From the NCBI GenBank assembly GCA_977020255.1, contig CDROCS010000777.1, positions 868,001 to 932,000 of the forward strand: a stretch of 64,000 nt of DNA. The letters run 5' to 3'. This DNA comes from Obrimoposthia wandeli. Its lineage: Eukaryota. The translations under genes were made by a program, and so were the position numbers. This document shows, piece after piece, positions 24,454 through 43,872 of this stretch. Below the pieces are notes generated by a model that was given only the letters and a program-made list of their open reading frames with translations, made no database searches and was not told the DNA's origin. The first letter of the stretch is position 1, and each line of letters begins with the position of its first letter.

Positions 24454-24801
24454 CCAACTGATTAAAGAATTGAGAAACGATTCCAACTGATTAAAGAATT
24501 GAGAAACGATTCCAACTGATTAAAGAATTGAGAAACGATTCCAACTGATTAAAGAATTGAGAAACGATTCCAACTGATTAAAGAATTGAGAAACGATTCC
24601 AACTGATTAAAGAATTGAGAAACGATTCCAACTGATTAAAGAATTGAGAAACGATTCCAACTGATTAAAGAATTGAGAAACGATTCCAACTGATTAAAGA
24701 ATTGAGAAACGATTCCAACTGATTGAAGAATTGAGAAACGATTCCAACTGATTAAAGAATTGAGAAACGATTCCAACTGATTGAAGAATTGAGAAACGAT
24801 T
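24454..24801. repeat. 29-bp tandem repeat x12 inside the LTR (also at ~42478-42825)
   Basis: Unit CCAACTGATT(A/G)AAGAATTGAGAAACGATT; 348 bp = 12 x 29. Confidence 0.95.
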
Positions 24802-24908
24802 CCAACTGATTGAACGATTCTGCCAGGCTCGCAAATACCACATACGGACCCTACACCGGACGTCCCACGAGTTGCTGTAACTGGTAAGCACACAGATTAG
24901 GTCCATTC

Positions 24909-25345
24909 ATTGCCCCTAGTAGGCAATTAGGTTATTTCATTACCCCTAGTTGGTAATTCTACGTTTTTAAAATAATAAGCAAATTCATTACCCCTAGCTG
25001 GTAATTAGGACCTGTGTCTCTTTAACACAATCATTACCCCTAGTTGGTAATTAGGATCGGAACTTTATTCATTGTCCCCAGCGACAATTAGGAAACTTAC
25101 CAGACGTTTTTTCCGTAAGATTCATTGTCCCTAGCTGGCAATTAGGTTCCTTCATTGCCCCTAGTTGGTAATTCGGATAAATATTCATTGTCCCTAGTAG
25201 ACAATTCGGTAAGACTCATTGTCCACTAGCTGACAATTCGATTCGCACATTGTCCGTAGTTGACAATTAGGAGCAAGTTTTATTGTCATCTGGACAATTA
25301 GGATTTTAGGAGATCCCTTGTCTACAGTAGACAATTTGGGTCGAA
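24909..25345 (+). repeat. Array of 12 short stem-loops in the LTR (duplicated in the 3' LTR)
   Basis: ATT(GCC/ACC/GTC)-N5-8-(GGC/GGT/GAC)AAT; most loops resemble CCTAG(T/C)(A/T). Confidence 0.85.
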
Positions 25346-25605
25346 CACACAGAGAGAGTAAGGAACAAAGAAATATTTGGTTAGAGATAAGAAGTAGGAG
25401 CGAAGAAAATTAAGAGAGTTGCGTTATAGATTAACCAACCTGAGTAAGAAGACTAAACCTAAGAAACTTAATCACCTGAACGTAAAATCAATACGTGGTT
25501 CATCCCCACTTCTTGTAGAGACTCACAGAAGTCCTTTAGGAATTTTATCATACTTTTTAGAAATACGTACATAAACGTATTGTGGTGTTAGTTACGTGAA
25601 TTTTG

Positions 25606-25611
25606 AATAAA
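25606..25611 (+). promoter_or_regulatory. Candidate polyadenylation signal AATAAA (functional copy expected in the 3' LTR)
   Basis: AATAAA ~205 nt before the LTR end; position fits an R/U5 border. Confidence 0.45.
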
Positions 25612-25824
25612 CAATTTCCTACATTAGAACAAGTTGTTTTACACCCTTCAGACTAAGAGACATCAAATCAATACCTTCAGATAGTACAAGAGATTAGGCA
25701 ACCATAACACTAAGTAGGCCACGACCAACTTTAAGACCTGCTTCTAATCGAACTCACGTTGGGGCCCTCCGCACACTAAGAGGCTCTATACCAAGTTTCG
25801 TATAGAAACCCCAACATATTAAAG

Positions 25825-25843
25825 TGGTGCCCCGAGTGAGGAT
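25825..25843 (+). other. Primer-binding site complementary to elongator tRNA-Met
   Basis: TGGTGCCCCGAGTGAGGAT, 8 nt after the LTR, matches 18/19 the complement of the animal tRNA-Met(e) 3' end as I recall it (TGGTGCCCCGTGTGAGGAT). Confidence 0.85.
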
Positions 25844-25869: not shown

Positions 25870-26852
25870 TAGAATAAGTTCAGATAAGTTTTGGATAATT
25901 GAGAATAAGTTTCAGGTAAATAGAATAAGTTCAGATAAGTTGCGGATAATTGAGAATAAGTTTCAGGTAAATAGAATAAGTACAGATATTAAGAATAAGT
26001 TTCAGATATTGAGAATAAGTTTCAGATATTAAGAATAAGTTTCAGATATTGAGAATAAGTTTCAGATAAATTGAGAATAAGTTTCAGATAAATTGAGAAT
26101 AAGTTTCAGCAGAAGAATATAGACAATTGAGAATAAGTTTCAGAAGAAGATATAAGTAAATTGAGTTAAGAATTTGATAAGTTTTAAGAAATCGGGTAGA
26201 TTTGTTCCTCGAAGTTAAGAATTTGATAAGTTTTTGAGAAATCGAGTAGATTTGTTCCTCGAAGTTAAGAATTTGATAAGTGTTAAGAAATCGGGTAGAT
26301 TTGTTCCTCAAAGTTAAGAATTTGATAAGTGTTGAGAAATCGGGTAGATTTGTTCCTCGAAGTTAAGAATTTGATAAGTTTTTGAGAAATCGAGTAGATT
26401 TGTTCCTCGAAGTTAAGAATTTGATAAGTGTTAAGAAATCGGGTAGATTTGTTCCTCGAAGTTAAGAATTTGATAAGTGTTGAGAAATCGGGTAGATTTG
26501 TTCCTCGAAGTTAAGAATTTGATAAGTTTTTGAGAAATCGAGTAGATTTGTTCCTCGAAGTTAAGAATTTGATAAGTGTTAAGAAATCGGGTAGATTTGT
26601 TCCTCGAAGTTAAGAATTTGATAAGTGTTGAGAAGTCGAGTGGATTTGTTCCTCGAGTCAGTAAATTTTATAAGTGAGAATCGAGTGGATTGATACTCGA
26701 AGTAATTAATTGAATAAGTTAAGTCGGGAGACTCTGTCCTCGAACTAATTAAAAAGATAAAATCGTAAGTGAATTTGATAAAGTGAGAATCGAGTGGATT
26801 GATACTCGAAGTAATTAATTGAATAGGTTAAGTCGGGAGACTCTGTCCTCGA
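25870..26852 (+). repeat. Leader tandem repeats: ~20-bp GAGAATAAGTTTCAGATATT units, 49-50-bp unit x10, ~109-bp unit x2
   Basis: Read directly from the sequence; the 49-50-bp units contain TCG(A/G)GTAGATTTGTTCCTCGA. Confidence 0.9.
25913..25972 (+). promoter_or_regulatory. Two candidate major splice donors (CAG|GTAAAT at 25915/16 and 25966/67)
   Basis: Consensus-like 5' splice sites ~70 and ~125 nt after the PBS, the position of retroviral major donors. Confidence 0.5.
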
Positions 26853-27150
26853 ACTAATTAAAGAGATAAAAAGTCGTAAAATAAGAATTGTGAAATAAGA
26901 TAAAAATAATAAGTGAATTGATATCGTAAACGAATACATAATTGATAAGACAACGGATAATAGAAAAGGACCCGCGTATAATACTAGAAGACAAAGTCAG
27001 ATCCCCAAGGAAGAGATAAATAATAATAAAGTTAACCGAATTGAACAGGTTCCCCAAACAGATAACAAAGTAACAGAAAAGACTAGAGTCGAAGAAAACG
27101 TATCAGAAAGAGACGTTGATCAATCAGCGGTTTCAACCGGCAGTTTTAAT

Positions 27151-29631
27151 TTGACTGAATTATTTGGTGACATAGACCAAGAAGAATTTGAAATTGCCAA
27201 TCCAGTAGTGATTGAGGAAGTTCCATTGAATAATATTGCAGAAATAGTTGAAGACGATATAGTTGCAGATATGGCTCAACCAGGAGCTCAAGCAGATATT
27301 AATGCAGGAAATAATGTAGGTGACATGAATGCCGAGCAGTTGGCACAAGCTTTAAATGCGACGTTGAGACCCAATTTTTCAGGATCATTGCAGATTACAA
27401 AGTTTAAAGGAGATGAGGAAAGTATTTGTGACTTCCTCGCAGAATATTCGAGTTGTGCAGATGTTCAAGGATGGAACGATAAAGAAAAATGTATCAGAGT
27501 ACAGGCACATTTAACCGGATTAGCACTTGAAGTGTATAAACATTTGACAGAAGCAGAACGTTTGGACTGGCCAACGTTAGAAAATGCTTTTATTGGAAAA
27601 TTGGTATTAGGAGATTTAGCCAAAGTAAATAAGCGACTCATGAGAGAACGGAAACAGAAACATGATGAAGGCGTGAATGAATACGCGTATGTTTTGAGAA
27701 CCTTGGCCGCAAGAGCGTACCCAAGAAGAATAATGAGAAATCAGGACGGTAATCCTGTAGCTCCAGAAGCACAAGCAGCGGAAAATGACCGGAACCAAAA
27801 TGAAATGGCAGAGGTCTTGTTAGATATATTTAGAGGAGGATTGAAAAAGGATATTAAAGTGTTATTAGCGGTATCGGATACAAATGATTTTGATAACGCC
27901 GTGCGAAAGGCGAGAGAGATCGAGAAAAATATAAAGAATAATGCAGCATTGGCAATCTACGCAATGACTGCAGGTGACGACGATAAGACAAAGGTCTTCG
28001 TGAATAAAACAGAACCGAGTAATTTTCAGAATCGAAATTGTGGACAAAATAAGTTTGAAAAAGTAGATGAATCCAGTAACGGAAATAGAGATAATTTCCG
28101 AAGTAGGAATCGAGATGATTCGAGAGGTAGAAATAATAGTGAGTCTTGGAACAGGAATCGAGATGATTCAAGAGGTAGAAATAATAATGATTCGTGGAAT
28201 AGAAATAGAGATGATTCCAGGAATAGATTTAATAGAGATAATTCAGGAAATCGCCAACCTTGGAGAGGAGACGATAGGAATTATAACGCCAACAGAGGAG
28301 AGCGAAGTGACTCTCGATTTGGAAATAATACAGGAAATAGTGACGGAAGATTCAATAATCGAGGAAGCGGGTTTGAATCGAATTTCCGAAGAAATGATTT
28401 TAGAGGACGCTATGATAATAGACAGAATAGTCGTCGAGTACAGTTCGAAGATGAACAAAATAAGATAGATATTCGAGGGAGAATAATGTGTTACACGTGT
28501 AAACAAATGGGTCACTATTCGAGAGACTGTACGAGAAGTAAAGAGTTCGGAACTAACAGATTTGGAAATAATAATTTCGGTAATAATAATTTTGGAAATA
28601 ATTATAGAGGATATAATTCACCTCCGCCATGGAATAGAGGTGGTGGATATACTCCACAGCCATGGAGACTGAATAATCAGTATACAGATAGACAACAGTC
28701 ACCAGGTAGATATAATAACTATGCAGATAGACAGCAAGGAGCTGAGAGATACAGTAATTACGTAGGACAGCAAGGAGCTGAGAGATATAATAATTCCGGT
28801 AGATATAATAATAATAATGTCGACAAGACAAATAGTCGAGAGAGTTCGCCGAAACCGAAAGGAAATTTTAGTTATGTAAGCGATGACAGTGATAGGAATC
28901 GCGAGACCGAGCTTCGACGCGAAATAGATTTTGAAGATAGTGATAGTAAATTTGAACGAATGTTGGGAATAATTAAAGATTCACCACATACAAAGATGGC
29001 GAATTCATCTACGTTGTCGAAACAAGAGAGAAGTCTACACTCGAGAGAAGAGATGAATGATTTAATGAATAGAATATTAGAAGCGTATGAGACACCAATA
29101 GAGAAAACGTGTAACGCACAACCTATGACTGATCATGTGGAAGCAGCGAGAAATGCTACGAGTATGGAAAATGTAAAAAAGATAATTAGTGAAGCTAAGG
29201 AGACGTTAAATCAACCGTTAGATGAAACGAGTGAAGCTCCAGAAGTTCTGGCCAAATTGCAAACAATTAAAGTGCACCGATTGGAAGAAGTGCGTGCAGA
29301 ATTGGTTAAACATAGTCATGATAACTTGGGTTACAAAGAAGTACCCCGAGGACTACTGAAAGGTTATGGTCGTTATGTACAGAGATCAAACCAAAAAGGA
29401 ACGATGAAAATTTCACTTCGATTAATTTCCGGACAGATAATACATGAAAAACTTAACGTGTATCAAACAATGAAAACGATTCGGAAAAAGTTAGCCGAGA
29501 AACTTGAAATTGATGGAATGAATATGTTGTTCCATTATAAAGGGAGATCACTAGATGATGAGGACGTACCAGTCGAGTTTGGATATCCGATAGGAAATGA
29601 ATTAGAGGAAAAATTGATGTCATCACTGTAG
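27151..29631 (+). CDS. gag: Gag: capsid-like domain, R/N/G-rich region, CCHC knuckle, C-terminal ubiquitin-like domain
   Basis: Retrotransposon-gag-like core (WPTLENAF..YAYVLRTLAARAYP..FRGGLKKDIK) and CYTCKQMGHYSRDC at 28489-28530. First ATG is 27271; the frame is open from 26917. Confidence 0.9.
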   Translation: MTELFGDIDQEEFEIANPVVIEEVPLNNIAEIVEDDIVADMAQPGAQADINAGNNVGDMNAEQLAQALNATLRPNFSGSLQITKFKGDEESICDFLAEYSSCADVQGWNDKEKCIRVQAHLTGLALEVYKHLTEAERLDWPTLENAFIGKLVLGDLAKVNKRLMRERKQKHDEGVNEYAYVLRTLAARAYPRRIMRNQDGNPVAPEAQAAENDRNQNEMAEVLLDIFRGGLKKDIKVLLAVSDTNDFDNAVRKAREIEKNIKNNAALAIYAMTAGDDDKTKVFVNKTEPSNFQNRNCGQNKFEKVDESSNGNRDNFRSRNRDDSRGRNNSESWNRNRDDSRGRNNNDSWNRNRDDSRNRFNRDNSGNRQPWRGDDRNYNANRGERSDSRFGNNTGNSDGRFNNRGSGFESNFRRNDFRGRYDNRQNSRRVQFEDEQNKIDIRGRIMCYTCKQMGHYSRDCTRSKEFGTNRFGNNNFGNNNFGNNYRGYNSPPPWNRGGGYTPQPWRLNNQYTDRQQSPGRYNNYADRQQGAERYSNYVGQQGAERYNNSGRYNNNNVDKTNSRESSPKPKGNFSYVSDDSDRNRETELRREIDFEDSDSKFERMLGIIKDSPHTKMANSSTLSKQERSLHSREEMNDLMNRILEAYETPIEKTCNAQPMTDHVEAARNATSMENVKKIISEAKETLNQPLDETSEAPEVLAKLQTIKVHRLEEVRAELVKHSHDNLGYKEVPRGLLKGYGRYVQRSNQKGTMKISLRLISGQIIHEKLNVYQTMKTIRKKLAEKLEIDGMNMLFHYKGRSLDDEDVPVEFGYPIGNELEEKLMSSL

Positions 29632-29672
29632 GACGTCAAGAGTTAGTAGATAATGAAGGATTAACCGAGATA

Positions 29673-30647
29673 TTGAATTCTGCGTTAGAAATGATAAAAA
29701 CGCCTATAGAAATTTTAGACAGTTCAAGCGAAAGCGGAGATAATGATGTAGCTGAAGTTTGGAACAAGACATCCACACCAGAACCGTACGTAGCTGAATT
29801 ACAAGACATGAATTTAGAAAATGAGTTGACAACTCCAGTGGTTGAGGTGCCACCAGAACCAGATATAATTCCAATCAGACAAGATGAAGTCACGGATACA
29901 GCCAACCAAGTGAGACAAAACGAAACCGTAACACAACTAGTAGGAGAAGACGAAGTCTCCGAGATTGTAGATTTGGATTCACCAATTTGGCATGCCGCAT
30001 ACAAAGATAGACAAGCAGAGCAAATGATGCGACAAAATGAAGAGATTGGCCATGAAGAAGGACCAAGTCAAGAGATACAGTATAATGGTGAAACGTATGA
30101 TCCAGGAGAGAATCAAACTGAGTATCAGTATTTTCGAAGAGGGCCTGGAAGACCTAGAAAAGGTGAAAGTATATTACGAAATGTTCTAACTGCACCACAA
30201 ACTGATGAAGAAAGACATCTAAGTATTGGACAGTTAGCGGCGTCATTAGAGCAGTATAGTGCAGAGAGGAATGAAGATATCAGAGGTGATATGAATTCGG
30301 AAACTCCAAGTAGTAAAGATATACTTACGGGAATTCTCAGGCAAGTGAAGCCGAAGTTGTTCAAAATGTACAGAGATGAAACAACCGATATAACAGACAA
30401 TTTGACTAAAGCAGTCAGATCACAGATGTCTGCAGTAAAGAGAATGACCGCGAATCATGTATACCATGCATCGATAGATAGATTTTATGACGGTGAAGTT
30501 TTAGCGAGATTATGTGGAAACCAGACTACAAATAAAAAGTTAATTACAGCGATCACATATCTATGTTTCCAATTGACGGAACGAACGAGCCAACCTCACG
30601 AAGTCAAACAAGGAATAAATGAAGCGATGTATTTGATCGAGAAGTAA
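29673..30647 (+). CDS. Acidic/AT-hook/putative BEN-domain segment, probably a continuation of Gag in the -1 frame
   Basis: 324-aa ORF in the element's codon style; AT-hook RRGPGRPRKG (30135-30164); frame open from 29601, overlapping the ORF1 end. Confidence 0.75.
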   Translation: MNSALEMIKTPIEILDSSSESGDNDVAEVWNKTSTPEPYVAELQDMNLENELTTPVVEVPPEPDIIPIRQDEVTDTANQVRQNETVTQLVGEDEVSEIVDLDSPIWHAAYKDRQAEQMMRQNEEIGHEEGPSQEIQYNGETYDPGENQTEYQYFRRGPGRPRKGESILRNVLTAPQTDEERHLSIGQLAASLEQYSAERNEDIRGDMNSETPSSKDILTGILRQVKPKLFKMYRDETTDITDNLTKAVRSQMSAVKRMTANHVYHASIDRFYDGEVLARLCGNQTTNKKLITAITYLCFQLTERTSQPHEVKQGINEAMYLIEK

Positions 30648-30673
30648 CTTTCGAAGATCCAAGACTTAAAAAA

Positions 30674-32311
30674 TTGGCAAAAAAGGGACTTTTTGCTATA
30701 AAAAAGGATGGTAAAGACGTAATTAAATGCCACAAGTGTAAAAAAGAACGAATTATAGACAGATATACTCTTGAGCTACCTAAGAAAATTTTACATCATG
30801 AATTTTGCGAATTTTGTACTTTTAAAAACAAAATAAAGCAAAAAGAACAGAAAACCGAATGTATAATCGAATACCAAATCACACGAAAAGAGATTTTGGC
30901 TCAACAAGACACACCGGTAGTGTCATTCGTGAGAAGGTTATATCCAAAAGAAGCAGAAAGAATCAGAGAATTGGTAGAATTAAAAATAAAAACTACGCGA
31001 AACGGATACGGATCGATTTTTGAATTACTGCGAGATAAAGATGACAGTACAATTGAAACAAAAGAGAAAGAGTACATAAATGAACTAGAATACGTACTAG
31101 AAGATCCGGAATGCGCAGTTTGCATGGTCAACAAAATAGAAGTTGCCTTTCTACCATGCGGACATGTAAGAACATGTCGGAGATGTGCGAATGAAATGGT
31201 ATCATGTCCGATTTGTCGAAGAATAATAGATCGACAAGTGAGAAACATTAGATTTCACTATCCAAACATAGGAAGTGGACTGACAGAGTGTAATAATTCG
31301 ATAAATACAATATACCATATGGGAAACATAAATGGAGCACAGCGACCAGCAGCTATCATTAGAGTAAATAATTTAAGAGTAAAAGCCTTAATTGATACAG
31401 GTGCTGTAGCTTCGATAGTAAGTGAAGACTGTTTGACAGAGGAACAGAAACGAACAATGGCAGAACCAGATGAATTCTTGGTATCGGTCAATGGAGACCC
31501 TGTAAAAGTGACGGGAATATTACCATGTACATTTATTATTGGACGTAATACGATCACTATACCAGTTAGAATTATGAAAGAATGTCCTGAACCTACAATT
31601 TTAGGAATGGATGTACTATCACAACTTAAAGGGATAAGTATTGATTTACAAGATCCAAGATTGAAGGATAGCACATCAAACAGACAAATAAACCAAATTG
31701 ATGTAATTATAGAGAATCCTATAAAAATCGGTAAAAGATCACAATTTCTCATTCAAGGTCACACATTATCAGAAGATAAAGGACCAGTTGTGTTCGAACC
31801 ATCACGAGATTTCATAGAGAAATACGAATTACCAGTTGTGAGTACAGTATGCCTGATCGAAAACCACAAAATACCAGTTAGACTGATGAATACAACCAAC
31901 AATGACATCCTATTATACAGAGGAATGAGGTTGGGAAAGATAGCACAGATGGAGAATTCCACTGTATGCGCTATGAAACTCGATAAAGATACGAATGATT
32001 ACGAAGAAATAGTAATCCAATCAGAAAGACTGACAACTAGAGAAAAGAAACAATTACTTGATCTAATACATAAATTTCCAAAAGTAATTGCAAAAAATCC
32101 ATATGACATAGGAGAAACACCTGTCATAAAACATACAATACCACTGACAGAAGACAAAGTAGTCAGAAGAAGACCATACCGAGTACCATTACAATTACAA
32201 GATGAAGTAAAAAGTCAGATCGAAGATATGTCTAAAACAGGAGTAATTAGACCGAGTTTTTCGCCATTCTCAGCACCTGTGGTGTTGGTAAAAAGAAGGA
32301 TGGGAAAATGA
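30674..32311 (+). CDS. pol: BIR-like + IAP-type RING + aspartic protease + start of RT
   Basis: C3HC4 RING at 31112-31216, protease LIDTGAVASIVS (DTG at 31394), RT N-terminus RRRPYRVP..IRPSFSPFSAPVVLVK. Frame open from 30623. Confidence 0.9.
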   Translation: MAKKGLFAIKKDGKDVIKCHKCKKERIIDRYTLELPKKILHHEFCEFCTFKNKIKQKEQKTECIIEYQITRKEILAQQDTPVVSFVRRLYPKEAERIRELVELKIKTTRNGYGSIFELLRDKDDSTIETKEKEYINELEYVLEDPECAVCMVNKIEVAFLPCGHVRTCRRCANEMVSCPICRRIIDRQVRNIRFHYPNIGSGLTECNNSINTIYHMGNINGAQRPAAIIRVNNLRVKALIDTGAVASIVSEDCLTEEQKRTMAEPDEFLVSVNGDPVKVTGILPCTFIIGRNTITIPVRIMKECPEPTILGMDVLSQLKGISIDLQDPRLKDSTSNRQINQIDVIIENPIKIGKRSQFLIQGHTLSEDKGPVVFEPSRDFIEKYELPVVSTVCLIENHKIPVRLMNTTNNDILLYRGMRLGKIAQMENSTVCAMKLDKDTNDYEEIVIQSERLTTREKKQLLDLIHKFPKVIAKNPYDIGETPVIKHTIPLTEDKVVRRRPYRVPLQLQDEVKSQIEDMSKTGVIRPSFSPFSAPVVLVKRRMGK

Positions 32312-35300
32312 GATTCTGTATAGATTTCAGAGAACTGAACAAGATCACAAGAAAAGATGTGTATCCATTACCTAGAATCGAAGAGATGCTCGATAAATTG
32401 GGTAATTCAGATTATTTTACGACATTGGATTTGCAGAGTGGATACTGGCAAATCGAGATAGAGGAAGAAGATAAACACAAAACAGCCTTTTCCTGCGGAG
32501 ATGGATTATACGAATGCGAAAAGATGCCATTCGGACTGACAGGAGCTCCAGCAACATTTCAGCGTTGCATGAATTTTGTACTCGCATCGTGTGCAAACAC
32601 GATGGTGTATATTGATGACATAATAATATTTTCGAAAACGTTCGAAGAACATCTAAAAAATCTTGAAGTTGTATTTAAAAGACTGGAAAACGCTAAATTA
32701 AAAGTTAAACCTACAAAATGTGTATGGGCTAAAGAGCGAGTAACATTTTTAGGACATATAGTATCGAAAGAAGGCATTCGTCCTGATCCGGCAAAGATCG
32801 AGAAAGTAAAAGCGCATTTAGCGCCAAAGACTGTTAAGGAGATACAGAGTTTTTTAGGTCTTGCGAATTATTATAGACGATTTGTTGAACATTTTTCAGA
32901 TATAGCAACACCATTGAGAAAGTTGACGAGAAAAGATGAGAAGTTCATATGGGGAGAAGAAGCCCAACAAGCGTTCGAGCATTTAAAAGAAAGACTGATA
33001 AAAGCACCAATATTAGCGTTTCCAGATATAAACCGACAGTTCATACTCATGACAGATGCAAGTAACTATGCTGTAGGAGCAGTATTGGGACAAGAGGATG
33101 ACGAAGGAAGAGAACACGTCATTGCGTATGCGAGTAGAGGATTAAACAGAGCCGAAAGAGGATACTCTGTTATCGAAAAGGAATGTCTAGCCATAGTGTA
33201 TTCATGTAGACAGTACAGACACTATTTGCTAGGACAAAAAGTATTCCTGTATACAGATCACAAACCACTACAGTTCTTATATAAACATAGAGATGAGATG
33301 AGTAGATTAAACAGATGGTTTCTAAAATTGGCCGAATTCGATCTAGAAATCCGTTATAGAACCGGAAAGTCGAATGGCAACGCAGATTGTTTATCGAGAT
33401 TGACAAATGTAGATGAGAAAGGAAACATAATTCCAGAAGAAGATGAAACCAATGACCAAAAAGGAGAAGCAAATCTACTGACGATTTTGCTAAAGACGGG
33501 TAAAATAGACAAAGAGATCATCAAAGAACAGAAAGAAGATGAAGAACTGAGTCTAATCAAAGAATTGCTGGTGAAAGGAGATCTAAACGATGAAATGACG
33601 AAAAAATACTCGATAAAAGAAGGAATCTTGTATATTGTCAATAATGTCGGAAAGATAGTAGTAGTAATTCCGAAGTCATTGAAAACAGCAGTGATGATCC
33701 AGTATCACGACGGAACACTGGGAGGACATCTGTCAGGGCGAAAGACAATAGCCAGAATCAAAGAGAAGTACCATTGGGATGGTATGGAAGACGACATAAA
33801 ACAATGGTGTAAACAATGTAAAGTATGTTTAACCAGAAAAGACACCGGAACTCGTACTAAAGTTCCGTTGAAACCAATGCCAGTTCCCTTGGCACCAATG
33901 GAATTCACAGCGATGGATATATTGGGACCATTGAGAGAATCAAGTAAAGGAAACAAGTATGTCATAGTATTTACGGACTACATGACGAGATGGGTAGAAG
34001 CATATCCCATGCAGAACCAGAAAGCTGAAACAATAGCGCAAATCTTAGTGGAAGAGATAATATTTCGATACGGAGTGCCTAGAAAGTTGTTAACGGATCA
34101 AGGTAAGAACTTCACTGGAGAAGTCATAAAAGCAGTATCGAAGATATTCGGAATCATGAAGTTACAAACTTCACCATATCACCCACAGACAGATGGTCTG
34201 GTGGAAAGGTTTAATAAAACTTTATGTATGATGGTACAATCCTATTGCTCAGACAAGCAAGAGGATTGGGATAAATATTTACCTTCATGTTTATATGCTT
34301 ACAGGAATTCAGTTCGAGAGGCGACAGGTCACACACCATTCTATCTGATGTATCTCAGACAGAACAATATGCCAATGGATCTGGAGTGGACCGAGCCAAC
34401 ATCCCAGTACCTAGAAACTGAACAATACATTGTCGTCATGAAGGAAAGATTACAAGATGCTTGGACCAAAGCCGGATTGAAGTTGAAATTCAATCAAGAA
34501 GGTTACAAGGAACAATACGACAAAAAAGCAAAACCACATGAATTTAGAGTCGGAGATCAAGTGATGATATTTTATCCAGTCATCGAACCAGGTCTATCGT
34601 TTAAACTTCATAGACCATACAAAGGACCATACAAGGTGATCCAGACAACCTCAACAAATTTGAAAGTAATCAACGAAGAGAATCGGAACAAAGAACCGAT
34701 GATTGTACATGCAAATCGATGCAAATTAGTACCAAATAAAGATAATGCGTCACGATATGAGTTAAGATCACAGAAATCGAAGCCAAATACCAATACCATT
34801 AAACTTACACGAATGGTAAGTGATCGGAACTACATAAACATGATGACGAGTGGTAGCGAGAAAAAACCAGCGAGAATTGGTATGCTCAGAATGAAGTGCC
34901 AAGAGGAAAAGGAAGTAATCCGACACATCGCACCACAAGAGATATTAGAAGAAGACGAAGAGATAATAGTTGTTTTCGAAAAAACACAACCGACAGATGT
35001 GGCTAAAGAAGTCATTGTGAAAGATGCACTGACAAACGAATTTCTATGCGAACTTAGAGTGTCATATTACGACGGAAATACATTAGTCGCATCACTTTAT
35101 CAAAATTCCAATGTGTTTACGACTGAGAAAGTGATAATCGAAATCACATTGACACCAAACATAGTTGCATGGCAGAACTATGACAGTACTGAAGCAGGAC
35201 TAGCCAGTCAGGAAGAGAAGGAACCGGCCGGTGGTCACATACTGCATGGTACACCAAAAAGACTCAAACAAGAATACCACGATGTAATAATGGTATTACG

Positions 35301-38300
35301 TAATTCACATGGGAAAAGAGATATCATGAGAGTCCATTTAATCGACGCTGACACTGAAAAGATAATTTGTCAGATGGACACCAAATACTTTGATGGAAAG
35401 ACAATTGTATGTTGTATACCAGAATCTCACCGATTAGAGACAGATCAAACGGAAGTATCTGTAAGGTTGAGCGTAATAGAAGGATTCCATTCGCCAACCC
35501 ATCCGGAAGTGACTAACAATAAAATCATCAAAGCAACGGCAGAATTACGCATTGACAGCGGATACCGGAAGTGGGAAGCTAAAAATAAAAAGCCACAAAG
35601 AATCAATATGATCCGAGAACAAGTGACCAGCTCAATCCAGCCAAAATATCATGCTGAAATAGTATCATCCGCGCCAAGTGTAATTACATCGATAAACGAC
35701 GAAATTATAATTTTACTAAAAAATCGATGGCCGTCATCAACCGAGATACGAGTAAACTTAATTAATTATGCGAAGACACCGATATCTAAGCTGAATGTTA
35801 CCTATTTTGATGGATTGTCCATCATGGGTAAATTGGAAACAATTGTCATGTGCTATGGAGCACAGTTCCAAGTTGAGATACTTAAAGATAGTGTAATACC
35901 GTATCCGATTCACAAATACGAAGGGGAAATCAACCCAATTATTCTAACACCTTCATTAATTTCAGTTCAGACAGACATACCAGAATACCCTTCGAGCGAG
36001 TCTAGTGAAGACAGCGAACCGGAAAGTAACGATACAGAATCAACAGAATCCGAAGATAACATAATAGAGCGATTCGGAAGAACCATGGAGGTTGAATTCG
36101 CTAAAGAGAACAGAAAAAGACAAAACATAGAATTCGTGAAACAGAATATACAAGAAAGACGAATTAAATCTGCAGAAGAGACCGAGTCGGAAGAAGACTC
36201 AACAAAGGAACAGACATCAGAGACAAAGATGAATATCCCTCCAGCAATACGAATGCTGAGAGGAAAGAAACTGGCAAAACTAACTAACATCGACGACCAG
36301 ATAGAGAAGAGATTAGAAAGACTAAAACTTGAAGAGTCAGAATTAATGCCACCAATGAGTGAGATCATTCCAGGTAAGTTATACCTCGGAAATGTGGAGG
36401 ATGCCACAGATGAAAAGAAACTGTTGGAACAAGGGATAACATATGTGATCAACGTTACAATGAATCACAAATCGCAATATCAGACGATCAGAGCTATGAC
36501 ATTAAGAGTAAAAGACTCAATGGACGCTAATCTTCTCGAATGGTTCGTAGAAACAAACGAAATACTTCACAGAGAACTCCGAAACCAAGGAAAAGTGTTG
36601 GTACATTGTCAGAAAGGAATTTCTCGATCAGCAACCCTAGTATTAGCATATCTAATAAAGACTAGACGAATGCAGGTACTAGAAGCGTTAAAATACCTAC
36701 AGGAGAGAAGAAGTATTGCAAACCCAAATCTTAATTTTTTGGGACAGTTGGCAAATTACCAACTTCTGTTGCAAGAACAAAGACGGATGGACGACATTCC
36801 TGAGGATCCAAAGGAAAAGAATTTCCTCCAAGCATTATCACTGACTGGGTTATTTTTAGCTGGAGTCGACAAAATTACACAGATAATGCCAAAAGTATTT
36901 TTATGTCATCCAGGAGATATAGATACTGCTGGATTAAAGTTCCACAGTATCAACCGAGTAATCAACATTGTTGAAGTCGGAAACGAGATAATTAGTCTGT
37001 GTCAAAATACTGAAGATGACACCACTCGATACATACATGCTTCCAATCGAGAGATAAACGATGCGCAACAACATCTGACGAAATTGACTCAAACCATCCA
37101 AGCTGAAGTCACAGAAGGAAACGGCGTTCTGATATATCAGAAAAAAGGTACAATGTTAGCGCCTACCATAGGTGTATCCTTGTTGGTAGAGTACCATGGT
37201 CACACGCCAGAAGAAGCGATGGTCTACATCAAACAGAATAGACCAAATACGGAATTCAAACCGTTACTCGTTCGAGAAATAGAGAAATACACCGAAAAGA
37301 GGAAGCAACAACGAGAAACAAATGAAGCTACAACAACAGTGCCCAGCTTTCAATACCAAAGATTGCTAGCGATAGGCTTGTTAAGTTGTTTAATGCCGAT
37401 AACGGGAGCACAGGAGATAGGCTCCAACCACGGAAATAGTTCCTGGTTCAACGAAATCCACAATTACACCATACAGTACCATACGCCGGCACTGATGATG
37501 CTATTAGTGTTGTTAGGACTAATTGATGTGTGGATCATCCGAAAATGTCTTCGATCTATGAGAACCGACAGTAAAAGATTTCAGTTTGTAAAGATGAAAA
37601 GACCAAATGGACCAACGAACAAAGTGCTTGTGTATCTAGACGAAAGGATCGAAGATAACATAGTAAATGAAGCGATATTTTACCCACAAAACAGAATACT
37701 GAAGCAATTCCGAATAGATTATGAAGCTGACCGACAACGCACACTTGACCAAATATCAACAACATTCGCCGGATGCAAGCGAAGAAAACGAGTTGTAAAG
37801 GAAATACAAAAAGATGCTGATACAAAAGGACCAACGTATATATTCAACGGCGATGTCATCAAAACACGTGAGTATGGAAGTAAGAGAGTGATAATTGAAA
37901 CGATGGAAGGACATAAAACATGCTTGTCCGCCAAAAATGGATTCGGAAAGTTGACGATACAAGGTAAACCAGTACAGTTGATTATCGGAAGAGATGGAAT
38001 CGAGGAGATGTCAAAACAACGACAAACAACAAAACGAACCAATCAGAAACAGATATCTCTCAAACGATTGATAATTAAAACCCTTTGCAAAAGGTCAGTC
38101 AAGGCCCTGTGCACCGTTGCACAAGGATTGATTTATGGAGTAGTAATTGGATTGGTACTGCAAGCCATGCCAACCAGTAAAGCCGAATTGATGACACTAT
38201 CCGAATATAATTTACATTTGAGAAATCTAGACAACACCCTAGAAATAATCAAGACATCCCACAGTAGAGCCGTGATGATCATGTGTGTAAAAGGATGTCC

Positions 38301-40026
38301 AGGACGAATGTGTATAGTCCCAGCAACCGAAATGATAACACTTAATGGACATTATGGAGTTAGTGTTGTCACATGTGAAGACTACATATTTGGACAAACT
38401 AAAATAGTGCTTCTCAGTGACACGTCCAACCAAAGTGCACACAAATTTAAGATATTAACCATCAAGAGTAAAGGAATACCAGCAGTACGTTATGGTATTC
38501 TAGAATTAGTTAATCCAATACTGGCACTGATCATTGGATTTATAATATTAATATTACTCATCTTGTTTTGTTGTTCAAAGATAGAGTCGAGATCAAAAAA
38601 GAAACGTCATGATCTCGCAAGACGAACAGGTCAAATGAACTTACAGAAATTCAACACAATCATACCAAGACCACCATTTCTAGATGAACCAGCACCAGAG
38701 TACCAGCCAACGATATATGAACACATAGAGGAAAGACCGTACTATATGAGTAATTTGACTTGTTTCATTGAAGTTCCTGAGTTTAGGAATCGAACGATCA
38801 TAGGAATCATGCTGATCGTACAAATCACCACTACCAAGGCTAGTTATGAGATCATGATCAGTAAATGGAGACAAGACGTAATACGGGCAATATACATAGA
38901 AATTCCCTTACTAAAAACAAATCACGTAGTAGACATTCATCTACAGACGTCAGCAACTGACAATATCGATCAGAAATTGTATGTCATCCGACAGGTCAGA
39001 ATAAAAATCGACCAAAATACACCCGTTTACAATTTAATATTATTGCATCATGAAAGAGTGTTATACCTACGGATAACAATATCAAAGAGGAAGCGGATTA
39101 TCCAAAGTATCCGAACAAAGTCATTAATATTACCTAGAGATGAGCGCATCTGGAAAATTGTTGACAGGATTATGATCACAGGTAGACGACGTAAAGCCGT
39201 ATGGAATTCCGTTAGGATATTTTTCAGATTGCTAGAAACTGACAGCGTGACAGTAATGTGTCCCAACCCAGATGGCGTAATCAGATTCGAAATCCAAAGC
39301 CAAATGTTAGTACCACATTTTAACACAGAATGTCTGTGTAATCGAATTGCCAGTAATTCTACAGAGACCTCGACCATAATCATGATAATAACAGGTGAAA
39401 TATTCTACATAACTCTAAGATACCAGAACCGTCGATTTCGCAGATACGGTATAAGTATCAAACCCAGGAAAATCATTCCCAGAAGACCAATCCTAGTCAA
39501 AAAGAAGGCAAAGGTAATCGAAAGTAAACGACATTCCAAGAAACCGACAGTGATCAAAACAAAGACAGAAGCGAAAGAAAAAGAGTCCAATCCCAGAAAC
39601 CAAAGTACAATTATTAAGAGGACAAGAGTGAGGGGAACGATCCCACTAGATCCCAAACATCATTTCCAATCCAAAATAATAATACCTGTTCCATCAGAAA
39701 CAAAACACCCAAATCCCCGAATTTTTAGAAAATCGGACATAATACATGGAAACCGATCAAAACCCATGGAAATATCATTCGAACCGACAAACAACAAAAT
39801 GAAGTATGATTATAAAACATCAGACAGCGGAATAACAGCAGTCAATGCCCTAATTGGAATGGCCGTAGTGTCAACAGCGGTGGTTCTACTTACAATCGTG
39901 TGCGTAAAAGGCAGTCAAGTATGCCCAGGAATACGACGAAAATGCGAAGGATTGCGATGCTGTGACACACCCATCATGGAGGAAGTGGAATTACGACCCT
40001 TACCTCCACCTCCCATCAAGATATGA
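32308..40026 (+). CDS. pol: Pol (RT, RNase H, integrase) fused to ~1730 aa of accessory domains (3 Ig-like repeats, DSP, pseudo-DSP, membrane region)
   Basis: YIDD at 32608; RNase H TDAS..EKECLAI..YTDH; IN HHCC, D-D-E core and GPY; no stop until 40026. Confidence 0.97.
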   Translation: MRFCIDFRELNKITRKDVYPLPRIEEMLDKLGNSDYFTTLDLQSGYWQIEIEEEDKHKTAFSCGDGLYECEKMPFGLTGAPATFQRCMNFVLASCANTMVYIDDIIIFSKTFEEHLKNLEVVFKRLENAKLKVKPTKCVWAKERVTFLGHIVSKEGIRPDPAKIEKVKAHLAPKTVKEIQSFLGLANYYRRFVEHFSDIATPLRKLTRKDEKFIWGEEAQQAFEHLKERLIKAPILAFPDINRQFILMTDASNYAVGAVLGQEDDEGREHVIAYASRGLNRAERGYSVIEKECLAIVYSCRQYRHYLLGQKVFLYTDHKPLQFLYKHRDEMSRLNRWFLKLAEFDLEIRYRTGKSNGNADCLSRLTNVDEKGNIIPEEDETNDQKGEANLLTILLKTGKIDKEIIKEQKEDEELSLIKELLVKGDLNDEMTKKYSIKEGILYIVNNVGKIVVVIPKSLKTAVMIQYHDGTLGGHLSGRKTIARIKEKYHWDGMEDDIKQWCKQCKVCLTRKDTGTRTKVPLKPMPVPLAPMEFTAMDILGPLRESSKGNKYVIVFTDYMTRWVEAYPMQNQKAETIAQILVEEIIFRYGVPRKLLTDQGKNFTGEVIKAVSKIFGIMKLQTSPYHPQTDGLVERFNKTLCMMVQSYCSDKQEDWDKYLPSCLYAYRNSVREATGHTPFYLMYLRQNNMPMDLEWTEPTSQYLETEQYIVVMKERLQDAWTKAGLKLKFNQEGYKEQYDKKAKPHEFRVGDQVMIFYPVIEPGLSFKLHRPYKGPYKVIQTTSTNLKVINEENRNKEPMIVHANRCKLVPNKDNASRYELRSQKSKPNTNTIKLTRMVSDRNYINMMTSGSEKKPARIGMLRMKCQEEKEVIRHIAPQEILEEDEEIIVVFEKTQPTDVAKEVIVKDALTNEFLCELRVSYYDGNTLVASLYQNSNVFTTEKVIIEITLTPNIVAWQNYDSTEAGLASQEEKEPAGGHILHGTPKRLKQEYHDVIMVLRNSHGKRDIMRVHLIDADTEKIICQMDTKYFDGKTIVCCIPESHRLETDQTEVSVRLSVIEGFHSPTHPEVTNNKIIKATAELRIDSGYRKWEAKNKKPQRINMIREQVTSSIQPKYHAEIVSSAPSVITSINDEIIILLKNRWPSSTEIRVNLINYAKTPISKLNVTYFDGLSIMGKLETIVMCYGAQFQVEILKDSVIPYPIHKYEGEINPIILTPSLISVQTDIPEYPSSESSEDSEPESNDTESTESEDNIIERFGRTMEVEFAKENRKRQNIEFVKQNIQERRIKSAEETESEEDSTKEQTSETKMNIPPAIRMLRGKKLAKLTNIDDQIEKRLERLKLEESELMPPMSEIIPGKLYLGNVEDATDEKKLLEQGITYVINVTMNHKSQYQTIRAMTLRVKDSMDANLLEWFVETNEILHRELRNQGKVLVHCQKGISRSATLVLAYLIKTRRMQVLEALKYLQERRSIANPNLNFLGQLANYQLLLQEQRRMDDIPEDPKEKNFLQALSLTGLFLAGVDKITQIMPKVFLCHPGDIDTAGLKFHSINRVINIVEVGNEIISLCQNTEDDTTRYIHASNREINDAQQHLTKLTQTIQAEVTEGNGVLIYQKKGTMLAPTIGVSLLVEYHGHTPEEAMVYIKQNRPNTEFKPLLVREIEKYTEKRKQQRETNEATTTVPSFQYQRLLAIGLLSCLMPITGAQEIGSNHGNSSWFNEIHNYTIQYHTPALMMLLVLLGLIDVWIIRKCLRSMRTDSKRFQFVKMKRPNGPTNKVLVYLDERIEDNIVNEAIFYPQNRILKQFRIDYEADRQRTLDQISTTFAGCKRRKRVVKEIQKDADTKGPTYIFNGDVIKTREYGSKRVIIETMEGHKTCLSAKNGFGKLTIQGKPVQLIIGRDGIEEMSKQRQTTKRTNQKQISLKRLIIKTLCKRSVKALCTVAQGLIYGVVIGLVLQAMPTSKAELMTLSEYNLHLRNLDNTLEIIKTSHSRAVMIMCVKGCPGRMCIVPATEMITLNGHYGVSVVTCEDYIFGQTKIVLLSDTSNQSAHKFKILTIKSKGIPAVRYGILELVNPILALIIGFIILILLILFCCSKIESRSKKKRHDLARRTGQMNLQKFNTIIPRPPFLDEPAPEYQPTIYEHIEERPYYMSNLTCFIEVPEFRNRTIIGIMLIVQITTTKASYEIMISKWRQDVIRAIYIEIPLLKTNHVVDIHLQTSATDNIDQKLYVIRQVRIKIDQNTPVYNLILLHHERVLYLRITISKRKRIIQSIRTKSLILPRDERIWKIVDRIMITGRRRKAVWNSVRIFFRLLETDSVTVMCPNPDGVIRFEIQSQMLVPHFNTECLCNRIASNSTETSTIIMIITGEIFYITLRYQNRRFRRYGISIKPRKIIPRRPILVKKKAKVIESKRHSKKPTVIKTKTEAKEKESNPRNQSTIIKRTRVRGTIPLDPKHHFQSKIIIPVPSETKHPNPRIFRKSDIIHGNRSKPMEISFEPTNNKMKYDYKTSDSGITAVNALIGMAVVSTAVVLLTIVCVKGSQVCPGIRRKCEGLRCCDTPIMEEVELRPLPPPPIKI
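36355..36775 (+). other. Dual-specificity phosphatase domain (catalytic motif intact) within the polyprotein
   Basis: SEIIPGKLYLG..GITYVINVT..VLVHCQKGISRSATLVLAYL..RRSIANPNLNFLGQL; HCxxGxxRS at 36604-36630. Confidence 0.95.
36874..37290 (+). other. Second DSP-fold domain lacking the catalytic Cys/Arg (pseudophosphatase)
   Basis: ITQIMPKVFL..INRVINIV..GNGVLIYQKKGTMLAPTIGVSLLVEYHGHTPEEAMVYIKQNRP parallels domain 1, with the HCxxGxxR motif degenerate. Confidence 0.8.
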
Positions 40027-40149
40027 TGAGTCAGAGGAGGTTGTAGATAAATTAGTGTGTGAAATATGTAGAAATATCTAGAAGCGATTGTACAAATAGT
40101 AGCAGTATATAAAACTCATGTAGAAATTAATCATCATCATGTATTTAGA

Positions 40150-40449
40150 ATGGCCGAAGAATGCCCAATATGTTTAGAAGATCTAACCGAACGAAGAACA
40201 AGACCCGAAACCTGCAACCATTTACACCACGAGGAATGTTTATCGACATGGATCAGAACTTATGGACAGTTCGGACACCCAACATACCCTCGTTGCCCTA
40301 TATGCAGAAGACAATTCGCAAGATTCGTCATGTTAGAACCCAACCAAAGGGATGTATATGTACAGGTGGTATTCTGCTGGAAGAATTTCGGAGAGTGTTG
40401 GTGTTATTACTGTTTGTCAGATCGACAAAATCAGACCACTTTTGTGTAA
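40150..40449 (+). CDS. Small RING-H2 protein 1 with C-terminal Cys cluster
   Basis: CPIC..CNHLHHEEC..W..CPIC, then CWKNFGECWCYYC. Confidence 0.9.
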   Translation: MAEECPICLEDLTERRTRPETCNHLHHEECLSTWIRTYGQFGHPTYPRCPICRRQFARFVMLEPNQRDVYVQVVFCWKNFGECWCYYCLSDRQNQTTFV

Positions 40450-40509
40450 AGATCACACAACCACCAGTCCTCAATCGAGCCCAAATTCAACATCAACCCT
40501 CCCACAGTA

Positions 40510-40815
40510 ATGTCTGGAGAATGTTCCATCTGCTACGAGAGCATCGTGGACTTCTACACCAAGCCCAACAACTGCGACCACCTTTTCCACGTCGAATGCC
40601 TCGAGACGTGGATCCCCATCGCAAACAGCAACAACCCCCTCGACTTCCCAACCTGCCCGATGTGCAGAGCGACCTTCTCAGTACACTACGTGTACAACCA
40701 AGACATCCTCCAAGCAGTGGTACCCATCGTACACTGCTGGAAAACCATCTGCGATTGCTGGTGCTCGTTCTGCGTGGAAGAGCGAAGCACAGGCCAGCCC
40801 AATCCCCAACAATAA
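40510..40815 (+). CDS. Small RING-H2 protein 2 (paralogue of protein 1)
   Basis: CSIC..CDHLFHVEC..W..CPMC, then CWKTICDCWCSFC. Confidence 0.9.
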   Translation: MSGECSICYESIVDFYTKPNNCDHLFHVECLETWIPIANSNNPLDFPTCPMCRATFSVHYVYNQDILQAVVPIVHCWKTICDCWCSFCVEERSTGQPNPQQ

Positions 40816-41148
40816 TCGAAGGTAACTTTCTGACTTGAACATGACATCATGAACTACCCTGTGTATCGCATACCGCGATAAATTAGCTACCATAATTGTA
40901 ATCATAATTATATAATCTTGTGAACTGTAAATTGACCATTACCATTTTTATGTATGATGTTTAACTGAAATTGTAATTATTATACTGAATTTCTAAAAAG
41001 ACAATTTTTATGCTTAGTGTGAATGCGTAAACATGCCTAAAATCGAAACAAAACTCGGTAGGATTAGATAACTAAGGATTCATTTTGAAACAAAATTTAA
41101 ATTAACGATGAGAACGGTGAACCCCAAATTGAAAGGAGTCATTTTCTC

Positions 41149-41649
41149 ATGCAGATGTTGTGCTCCGTATGCATGGAGAAGATTTGGGCGGCATCAGCAT
41201 CCCCTGTCGGCTGCCGCCACAAGTTCCACGAATCCTGCCTATATACTTGGGCCCGACTTCGACCCGGACAAGTCAATTGCCCCTATTGCCGCACTCCCTT
41301 CGCGGAATGGACACTACAGTGTCGAGGGCGCCACAAGGGCACCCATTCGCTCACCAGCTGTATTGGTGGCGAGCACTGCCAGTGCCCCGACTGTATCGCG
41401 CGCCGTCGCGATGCAAAACTCGCCCTCCGCGAGAAATACCGGTCAACCCGTGACCCCCGCTCATGGCAGCGTGGCCGTCAAATATGGCTCAAGAATCGCG
41501 GAGTACACGGGCGGTACACGACCATTTTTCACCCGAGCCAACACCTCACCATGCGCCAGCAGATGATACTGTACGATGGCGGCCCACCATCGTATCCAGA
41601 ACTACCACTGGAGCAGGTCTTGCTGTTTTTGAGAGACCGGAACAATTGA
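41149..41649 (+). CDS. Small RING-H2 protein 3 with basic C-terminal extension (true start may be ATG 41155)
   Basis: CSVC..CRHKFHESC..W..CPYC, then CIGGEHCQCPDC. Confidence 0.9.
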   Translation: MQMLCSVCMEKIWAASASPVGCRHKFHESCLYTWARLRPGQVNCPYCRTPFAEWTLQCRGRHKGTHSLTSCIGGEHCQCPDCIARRRDAKLALREKYRSTRDPRSWQRGRQIWLKNRGVHGRYTTIFHPSQHLTMRQQMILYDGGPPSYPELPLEQVLLFLRDRNN

Positions 41650-41912
41650 CAAATCCCTGACAATCACCCTTGATCCTTTCCCTTGTATAATTTTTTGTTG
41701 TCGTAGTAATAATGTATAAATTGAGACATGCTCCAACTTATGCATTATAATTTCCCACTAAAAAACCGGGTTTTGGAAAATTTTTTTTTGGGCATGTTTG
41801 TTGAGGTTGAATGATTGATTTTGTAGGGATGAACCTAAAATCAACAGCCAAAGGCTTATTAAGTAAAATCGATACGTTCCGGGGACGTAACTTTTTTGGA
41901 ACCCCCGAGGTA

Positions 41913-43839
41913 TGTTAAGGTTGAGAATTAAGAAAATTAAATATTTTAGTTGATTAAATACTAAAATAAAAAAGCCTTGAAAGCAAGGTCGAAAATCAAA
42001 TTAAAATATTAAGTTGAATTTTAGAAGTAAAATTAGTGAAATATTAGGGTAAAATTAGGAGGACCACGAAGGTCGTGTATTATGCGAAAATGTATAAAAG
42101 TTAAACTAATTAACCCAAAAGGGACAATATCAAAAACAAAAACTTAATTAGAAGAAAAACGGTTAATTACAACCGTCGCTCAAGGATCCCAAAGGTAAGC
42201 ACTTTTGCGTGCAGTAATTAAGATTTGTTTTCCAGCTGTCATTGACTGACAGAATCCAAAATCACTAGAAGAAATCGACCAGGAAACCCAAAGCAGCTGC
42301 CAGTTGATTGGCAACTAGATTCCTACTTAAGAAGGGCCATTTCAGGGAACAAACACAATTTCGGAAGCACTCCGGAATCGACTGAAAACAAGAAATCGAC
42401 TTCTAGGTAACTTTTAGTGTAAGAAGTTATAAAATTGAAATTATCTAGGAAAATTGAAGTGAATACCTGAACTGTAACCAACTGATTAAAGAATTGAGAA
42501 ACGATTCCAACTGATTAAAGAATTGAGAAACGATTCCAACTGATTAAAGAATTGAGAAACGATTCCAACTGATTAAAGAATTGAGAAACGATTCCAACTG
42601 ATTAAAGAATTGAGAAACGATTCCAACTGATTAAAGAATTGAGAAACGATTCCAACTGATTAAAGAATTGAGAAACGATTCCAACTGATTAAAGAATTGA
42701 GAAACGATTCCAACTGATTAAAGAATTGAGAAACGATTCCAACTGATTGAAGAATTGAGAAACGATTCCAACTGATTAAAGAATTGAGAAACGATTCCAA
42801 CTGATTGAAGAATTGAGAAACGATTCCAACTGATTGAACGATTCTGCCAGGCTCGCAAATACCACATACGGACCCTACACCGGACGTCCCACGAGTTGCT
42901 GTAACTGGTAAGCACACAGATTAGGTCCATTCATTGCCCCTAGTAGGCAATTAGGTTATTTCATTACCCCTAGTTGGTAATTCTACGTTTTTAAAATAAT
43001 AAGCAAATTCATTACCCCTAGCTGGTAATTAGGACCTGTGTCTCTTTAACACAATCATTACCCCTAGTTGGTAATTAGGATCGGAACTTTATTCATTGTC
43101 CCCAGCGACAATTAGAAACTTACCAGACGTTTTTCCGTAAGATTCATTGTCCCTAGCTGGCAATTAGGTTCCTTCATTGCCCCTAGTTGGTAATTCGGAT
43201 AAATATTCATTGTCCCTAGTAGACAATTCGGTAAGACTCATTGTCCACTAGCTGACAATTCGATTCGCACATTGTCCGTAGTTGACAATTAGGAGCAAGT
43301 TTTATTGTCATCTGGACAATTAGGATTTTAGGAGATCCCTTGTCTACAGTAGACAATTTGGGTCGAACACACAGAGAGAGTAAGGAACAAAGAAATATTT
43401 GGTTAGAGATAAGAAGTAGGAGCGAAGAAAATTAAGAGAGTTGCGTTATAGATTAACCAACCTGAGTAAGAAGACTAAACCTAAGAAACTTAATCACCTG
43501 AACGTAAAATCAATACGTGGTTCATCCCCACTTCTTGTAGAGACTCACAGAAGTCCTTTAGGAATTTTATCATACTTTTTAGAAATACGTACATAAACGT
43601 ATTGTGGTGTTAGTTACGTGAATTTTGAATAAACAATTTCCTACATTAGAACAAGTTGTTTTTACACCCTTCAGACTAAGAGACATCAAATCAATACCTT
43701 CAGATAGTACAAGAGATTAGGCAACCATAACACTAAGTAGGCCACGACCAACTTTAAGACCTGCTTCTAATCGAACTCACGTTGGGGCCCTCCGCACACT
43801 AAGAGGCTCTATACCAAGTTTCGTATAGAAACCCCAACA
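41913..43839 (+). repeat. 3' LTR (1927 bp)
   Basis: Copy of 23888-25816 with four 1-bp homopolymer-length differences found by eye. Confidence 0.98.
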
Positions 43840-43872
43840 TATGAAACTCTTTTTTATTTGGTTTATATTGTT

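Follow-up and report, generated by a model that had tools for sequence, protein, structure and literature searches.

Why would a retrotransposon carry several small RING-type genes of its own, and which proteins would their products tag? This question is raised by three short open reading frames, R1, R2 and R3, in the window (the whole stretch of 64,000 nucleotides here analysed), which an earlier note had described as paralogous mini RING-H2 proteins with a second, unrecognised cysteine cluster, expanded and diverged at a 3' accessory position and suggestive of an arms race with host factors.

The three RING-H2 genes and their carrier

R1, 40150-40449, + strand: 99 aa; RING-H2 at 40162-40305, C-x6-C-x-C-x2-C cluster at 40375-40413
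R2, 40510-40815, + strand: 101 aa; RING-H2 at 40522-40665, cluster at 40735-40773 with one extra Cys
R3, 41149-41649, + strand: 166 aa; RING-H2 at 41161-41289, C-x5-C-x-C-x2-C cluster at 41359-41394

All three frames carry, at the place that the earlier note had given, a C3H2C3 RING with the conserved Trp, followed by the cluster. The eight ligands appear in the order C-x2-C...C-x-H-x2-H-x2-C...C-x2-C in every ORF (C5, C8, C22, H24, H27, C30 and C49/C52, the last pair being C44/C47 in R3), and W34, the tryptophan contacting the E2, is found in R1, R2 and R3. The term mini suits R1 and R2, with ~45 residues outside the RING, but not R3, in which a basic extension of 84 aa follows the cluster and bears a PPSY motif at 41584 (residue 146); R3 also has an additional in-frame ATG at 41155. 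Pfam zf-RING_2 is matched above its cut-off of 27.3 bits by all three proteins (40.6 for R1, 36.7 for R2 and 32.0 for R3), and the E2-activating set is complete in each of them, namely a hydrophobic residue after Cys1, the helix Trp, a Pro after Cys7 and an Arg after Cys8. The roles in E2 activation of the RING positions other than the linchpin are well established. The linchpin itself directly follows the final RING Cys, with Arg as its efficient form (PMC13769585). Judged by these sequence features, the description as RING-H2 E3-like proteins holds, and R1-R3 are probably E3-active.

The AlphaFold2 model of R2, built on 53 alignment rows, shows residues 1-60 at pLDDT 83-93, and its RING superposes on the HRD1 RING-H2 with a Z of 6.6 and an rmsd of 1.2 Å over 48 aligned residues, a cross-brace RING fold being thus predicted for R2, the ORF modelled. 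With 4 rows, an earlier model had reached a poor mean pLDDT of 55.5, and a model of the R1+R2 complex with four zinc ions, in which no alignments were used, scored 0.00. None of the three proteins matched PHROGs (0/3), a phage search returned no match, and Rfam gave none over 23000-45000.

The pol frame, R1, R2 and R3 (32308-41649) share one reading frame. Between R1 and R2 there is a single in-frame stop with 20 open codons, so that the two might be joined by read-through or descend from a once-fused tandem RING. R2-R3 and pol-R1 are each interrupted by several stops, and their reading as one long fused ORF was discarded; the overlapping alternative ORFs at 40161-40838 and 41108-41566 were set aside, being without Pfam match.

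R1-R3 belong to a complete LTR retrotransposon of 19,952 bp and occupy the 3' end of its interior, just before the 3' LTR, which bears out the accessory position proposed for them. Its features are as follows:

5' LTR, 23888-25816, + strand: 1929 bp, TG...CA ends, contains a tandem array of a 29-bp unit
3' LTR, 41913-43839, + strand: 1927 bp
Target-site duplication, 23884-23887 and 43840-43843: 4 bp
Primer-binding site, 25825-25842, + strand: begins TGG, 8 nt past the LTR end
gag frame, 26917-29631, + strand: weak Retrotrans_gag, CCHC knuckle, C-terminal ubiquitin-like domain at ~29400-29600
348-aa frame with no assigned function, 29601-30647, + strand: in the env slot of relatives
BIR-like stretch, RING and protease frame, 30623-32311, + strand: aspartic protease
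pol frame, 32251-40026, + strand: RT-RNase H-integrase, then ~1750 extra aa

The order PR-RT-RNase H-IN is that of Ty3/gypsy elements, and the LTRs, the target-site duplication and the primer-binding site are all present. The latter might pair with elongator tRNA-Met, which is a guess. Between the two LTRs there is no substitution, the only differences being four single-base indels within base runs, from which a very young insertion is deduced; the indels look like read errors. No clear polypurine tract is seen at 41868-41912, and the end of that stretch resembles part of the primer-binding site. The 29-bp array has 12 copies per LTR (24454-24811 and 42478-42835), and further tandem arrays, of 20, 49 and 109 bp, occupy the 1.1-kb leader after the primer-binding site (25870-26871).

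Gag-pol is distributed over four overlapping frames, with switches near 29600-29630, 30620-30650 and 32250-32310; the same kind of break, if not real, could affect the long tail of R3. The ubiquitin-like domain is weakly matched (Pfam E 0.0068; PDB ubiquitin variants E 3e-4) and aligns to the same slot in the Pol relatives. A fourth RING, at 31112-31216, is of the C3HC4, IAP/MDM2 type (zf-C3HC4_3, E 1.3e-12), and the BIR-like stretch at ~30640-30820 remains below the Pfam cut-off (E 0.066), finds no match in the PDB and shows C-x2-C-x19-H-x6-C by eye. Directly before the protease, this stretch and the IAP-type RING form an IAP-like module, bringing the element to four RINGs. The pol extension comprises three repeats of 100 aa and unassigned fold (34900-35950), with one weak match in relative P0178 and for which an IPT/Ig identity found no support, a dual-specificity phosphatase domain with an intact HCxxGxSRS (36604), a second, degenerate one at ~36900-37280, and, at the end of the frame, four hydrophobic segments with luminal-looking stretches. 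This extension (window 34700-40026) is possibly as unusual as the RING cassette.

Searching with Pol residues 1-830 gave 2343 matches, and the closest relatives among the 120 listed are 50-57% identical. A Monjiviricetes-type fusion glycoprotein precedes the protease in 9 of 10 relatives scanned. In a quick Pol tree, made from the top 44 of 104 well-covered matches plus the window and including no named Burro sequence, the window Pol nests inside a clade of 25 rows (SH-aLRT 97; inner nodes 98, 99 and 97), of which 18 are env-labelled and 6 others are shorter, their RT starting within the first 650 residues. Within the window no env was found, either by a profile built from the env of six relatives (best E 1.4, 1017 frames searched) or by Pfam; at 29600-31100 the unrelated 348-aa frame replaces the fusion glycoprotein, and the element appears as an env-less member of an env-bearing clade. 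RING, BIR and phosphatase motifs were seen in 0 of the 24 closest Pol relatives, a count that covers their polyproteins.

No further RING occurs in the flanks (29-31% G+C). They hold a fragment matching the piggyBac-type transposase family DDE_Tnp_1_7 (5551-6033, E 4e-8), a hairpin with 42-bp arms at 62828-62911, and two repeat pairs, 84-89% identical and unrelated to the element LTRs (21014-21686/52596-53214 and 9758-9896/62512-62650).

The cysteine cluster behind the RING

The cluster begins exactly 23 residues past the last RING Cys in all three proteins. In 100,000 shuffles of each post-RING tail it arose by chance at frequencies of 0.00035, 0.0019 and 0.00016 for R1, R2 and R3, respectively, and over the six frames of the 64 kb its pattern has four matches, three of them being R1-R3. 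In the 53-row model the R2 tail, unreliable at pLDDT 48-56, is drawn as two strands and a helix at 86-93, a helix predicted at 86-93/94 in both models.

That this second cluster was not recognised at first sight agrees with the searches, since neither a family nor a relative with it was found in Pfam, PDB, Atlas or phmmer searches. The best sequence and fold matches of R1-R3 are cellular RING-H2 ligases that stop at about residue 55-62, none spanning the tail; fold searches returned RINGs alone, with coverage of residues 1-62, and thus of the RING part and not of the tail. Word-index searches among proteins of ~52-177 aa yielded no candidate for R2 alone and one for the R1-R3 alignment, with none at E 0.01. 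The full phmmer scan gave 198 matches, the best 150 of which are nearly all RING-only. Among these 150, the sole partial look-alike of the tail is P0055, an 88-aa RING-H2 protein with H-x-C-x-C-x2-C within 45 residues after the RING, hence without the first Cys. The tail alone matched nothing in Pfam or PDB sequences and nothing in the Atlas (best 0.79), and a tail profile run over 270 fetched proteins reached E 0.36 at best. Considering Pfam, PDB and 1.84 billion cluster representatives, none of which offers a family for it, the tail is a candidate new small zinc module.

The tail probably binds zinc. In SV40 small t, one zinc is held by C103, C111, C113 and C116, the last two at the start of a helix (PMC1945078, PMC9662318), a precedent that makes a one-zinc site plausible in R1-R3 and does not imply homology. 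Between the tail and the small-t zinc domain there is no PDB-sequence or Pfam match, and the tail model is too poor for a fold test.

Expression, function and origin of the three genes

Each start codon is preceded by a similar stretch of DNA:

R1 upstream signal, 40124-40149, + strand: AAATTNA, then YAG just before the ATG
R2 upstream signal, 40483-40509, + strand: AAATTNA, a pyrimidine run and CAG
R3 upstream signal, 41126-41154, + strand: its last bases, CAG, directly abut the second ATG (41155)

A YAG stands 0-2 nt before the start in R1, R2 and R3 (for R3 the second of two ATGs was chosen as the start), as it does in 38 of the 352 ATGs of the element. AAATTNA lies ~22-30 nt upstream of each start, an arrangement that random ATG triples equalled in 16/1469 and 3/1330 cases, and the combined pattern, defined after looking, occurs five times on both window strands, three of them at R1-R3. 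Candidate splice donors, by pattern match, are found at 24167 in the LTR and at 25914 and 25965 in the leader (25914-25972). An acceptor-like signal common to three starts suggests separate spliced mRNAs, and spliced subgenomic RNAs are the simplest reading of these signals; TATA-like sites at 40106 and 40909 would allow internal promoters instead.

R1-R3 may well be accessory single-chain E3 ligases of a young, env-less Ty3/gypsy element of a Burro-type lineage. Expression would proceed through one subgenomic RNA per gene, spliced to an acceptor immediately upstream of the start codon concerned. The RING would bind host E2~ubiquitin via Ile/Val7, Trp34, Pro50 and the Arg linchpin, and the beta-hairpin, the one-zinc Cys4 site and the helix cap would make up a second, small module with a stabilising role. 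Either this module or the basic PPSY extension of R3 might present the surface deciding substrate or location, the diverged paralogues thereby tagging different host proteins, be they defence, cell-death or silencing factors. Such tagging would help the element to persist, much as small RING ligases serve DNA viruses of fish. The substrates are probably host proteins. That they are specifically silencing factors is unlikely; Burro1 is reported as a PIWI target in planarians (PMC8532177), which makes such factors a reasonable guess and no more. Equally doubtful is a bolder version, in which an animal LTR element with its own catalytic E3 family would use a new zinc module for targeting and degrade host silencing or restriction proteins. 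Its targets would belong to the PIWI pathway, to chromatin or to innate defence, in a Vif/Vpr-like counter-defence with the element's own RING instead of a hijacked host cullin ligase, and the kit would include the IAP-like module, the ubiquitin-like domain, the phosphatase and pseudophosphatase and the membrane proteins, the envelope being lost. The arms race of the earlier note is a conjecture, compatible with the data and not supported by them.

R1-R3 might also serve the element's own cycle or act as non-catalytic decoys, by ubiquitinating or trafficking Gag or the membrane proteins, by engaging ESCRT/NEDD4 via the PPxY of R3, or as an E2 sponge. The PPSY motif, the four hydrophobic segments that end the pol frame and the little that R1 and R2 have outside the RING speak for such a role, as does a fold match to Lassa Z (Z 5.3, rank 41), a match that does not stand out among those to other RINGs. 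Arenavirus Z works as a small RING adaptor and not as a ligase, with Gly2 myristoylation and late motifs. A Z-like matrix protein was rejected, Gly2 being absent from all three proteins and PPSY present in R3 only. The PY motif in one of three and the missing Gly2 likewise weigh against an own-cycle role, as does the full E2-activating set, Arg linchpin included, kept in 3/3; three diverged copies would, moreover, fit several external partners better than a single internal one. Overall, service to the element's own cycle, or a decoy role, seems improbable, and host-directed ligases are preferred.

The cassette might otherwise consist of captured passengers, pieces of a host RING family with the same cluster and of no use to the element. 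LTR elements are described as often capturing ORFs downstream of pol (PMC6431247), and the genes stand apart in composition, with GC3 values of 0.41, 0.76 and 0.65 for R1, R2 and R3 against 0.25-0.37 for gag-pol. For R2 and R3, this is a compositional mark of foreign origin or of different selection. Their G+C contents of 54% and 58%, far above the 29% and 31% of the flanks, argue against a recent capture from this host. No ordinary host RING family with the same cluster was found, in libraries that cover invertebrate genomes and proteomes unevenly, nor does any host-type family with it figure among the best 150 of the 198 matches. Large DNA viruses supply most of the closest look-alikes, in the form of small RINGs, with seven of ten Atlas rows obtained for R1, all small RING proteins, belonging to Nucleocytoviricota; this is a lead only, and not evidence of transfer.

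Selection weighs further against passengers. Among R1-R3, pS is 0.63-0.77 and whole-gene pN is 0.45-0.56 (both uncorrected), and the codon differs at 16/30, 17/24 and 10/23 identical degenerate residues. Three intact frames with their ligands kept, despite synonymous sites near saturation, indicate old, constrained genes. The R1-R2 tail, with pN 0.47 vs pS 0.45, has 36 codons, too few to read. R1-R3 are very probably coding and functional, and useless passengers are very unlikely.

As to paralogy, the earlier claim stands firmly for R1 and R2 and less so for R3. R1 and R2 align gap-free at 37% identity over 93 aa (E 2e-25), and 0 of 5000 shuffles score as high as their tails alone, so that their paralogy is firm on the sequences compared. 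R3 is 29% identical to R1 over 94 aa (E 2e-9) and 35% identical to R2 over 57 residues only, and its tail alone is not significant, with 320/5000 and 612/5000 shuffles as high in its comparisons with R1/R2. The RING tree (60 rows, comprising R1-R3 and 57 of the best 150 phmmer matches, over 63 columns) neither groups nor separates the three. Common to all of them are Pro19, Thr-Trp, an Arg-x2-Phe after the RING and an Arg four residues past the cluster. The paralogy of R3 with R1/R2 is probable. That R1 and R2 alone are duplicates and R3 was acquired separately, its cluster being a look-alike, could appeal to the tail that does not exceed shuffles, to the x5 instead of x6 spacing, to the ungrouped tree and to unrelated RINGs being 40-57% identical to R2 over the RING, above the 35% of R3, and is nevertheless very unlikely, since the same 23-residue offset, the extra shared residues and the shared upstream signal favour one origin, which the tree does not reject (p-AU 0.48).

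Small multi-copy viral RING ligases are an already known kind, and what appears new is the three-gene 3' RING cassette with an unassigned Cys4 tail in a retrotransposon. Full-text searches of mostly open literature, with Burro covered through PMC6431247, listed no description of LTR elements bearing RING-H2 accessory genes as separate ORFs; such ORFs may be recorded in figures or supplements of the primary Burro descriptions, in Repbase or in bioRxiv supplements. The main texts of PMC5408684, PMC6338049 and PMC13524379 contain neither RING nor ubiquitin, and the ring of PMC10309623, discarded, refers to a shape and not to the domain. Protein-level counter-defence by animal transposons has been often proposed and seldom shown, and three short intact ligase candidates in a young element, easy to express, make it directly testable. 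Were the targets ordinary immune or cell-death proteins, a strategy of DNA viruses would extend to retroelements, in support of the interference with host ubiquitination that PMC6431247 suggests for Burro-type elements.

Comparison with known systems

With HRD1/synoviolin, RNF126, gp78, RNF165 and EL5, R1-R3 share the C3H2C3 cross-brace, the Trp helix, the Pro and the Arg linchpin. Cellular RING-H2 ligases are, on the contrary, large multidomain or membrane proteins. A RING with a C-terminal hairpin of the PHRF1/SCAF11/TOPORS/ICP0 type was presumed to be a further likeness. This candidate was discarded, the RINGs of R1-R3 being C3H2C3 and not C3HC4 and Pfam finding no PHD, the finger that comes after the RING in PHRF1; alphaherpesvirus RINGs match weakly (1chc, E 0.0012). 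Regarding small t, its C-x7-C-x-C-x2-C and the C-x5/6-C-x-C-x2-C that precedes the predicted helix of R1-R3 have analogous geometry, whereas in small t a helix and not a hairpin comes before the first Cys, there are two sites, and there is no RING.

Among transposon-encoded suppressors, the plant protein VANC of VANDAL is presented as perhaps the most convincing (PMC6719617). The likeness resides in accessory genes of a transposon proposed, or shown, to counter host control; unlike the putative ligases R1-R3, VANC targets the methylated DNA state of the family that encodes it, and the account consulted gives it no ligase role (PMC6719617).

Burro and GYPSM1 are giant planarian gypsy elements with ubiquitination and apoptosis cargo, the layout reported for Burro being gag, ubiquitin-like domain, env, ankyrins and PR, and an 'AIR1 ... 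RING Zn-finger' motif being listed in its polyprotein (PMC6431247). The GAG-ENV-POL errantiviruses have the same layout of gag, ubiquitin-like domain, env, ankyrins and PR (PMC13524379). Like Burro, the element is a large gypsy in which gag is followed by a weakly matched ubiquitin-like domain and which carries accessory ORFs and a RING in its polyprotein region, beside a weak BIR-like stretch. In the quick tree its Pol nests in a clade whose full-length members have a mononegavirus-type fusion protein upstream of the protease, and in some cases ankyrins. Unlike Burro, which exceeds 30 kb, it measures 19.95 kb, and Pfam finds neither env nor ankyrin, MATH or BCL2 domains in the window; section 7 of PMC6431247, in turn, mentions for Burro neither phosphatase domains nor separate RING-H2 genes at the 3' end.

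The proposed function finds its nearest parallel in fish viruses. ISKNV encodes four RING ligases (VP012R, 065L, 066L and 111L), of which VP012R, with 110 aa and an N-terminal RING, ubiquitinates the host sensor STING and degrades it, binding it via the RING half and not via the tail (PMC12846800); the tail of R1-R3, by the same token, need not be the recruiter. CaHV has five RING proteins (39L, 52L, 131R, 136L and 143R), in which sequence outside the RING is reported to govern where the proteins localise and how active they are (PMC7914681). The fold matches of the present model include iridovirus RING proteins of 107-110 aa (E 4e-3 to 1e-2), matches that rest on the RING. As in ISKNV and CaHV, several diverged RING proteins are gathered in one genome; unlike these dsDNA viruses, the carrier here is a retrotransposon.
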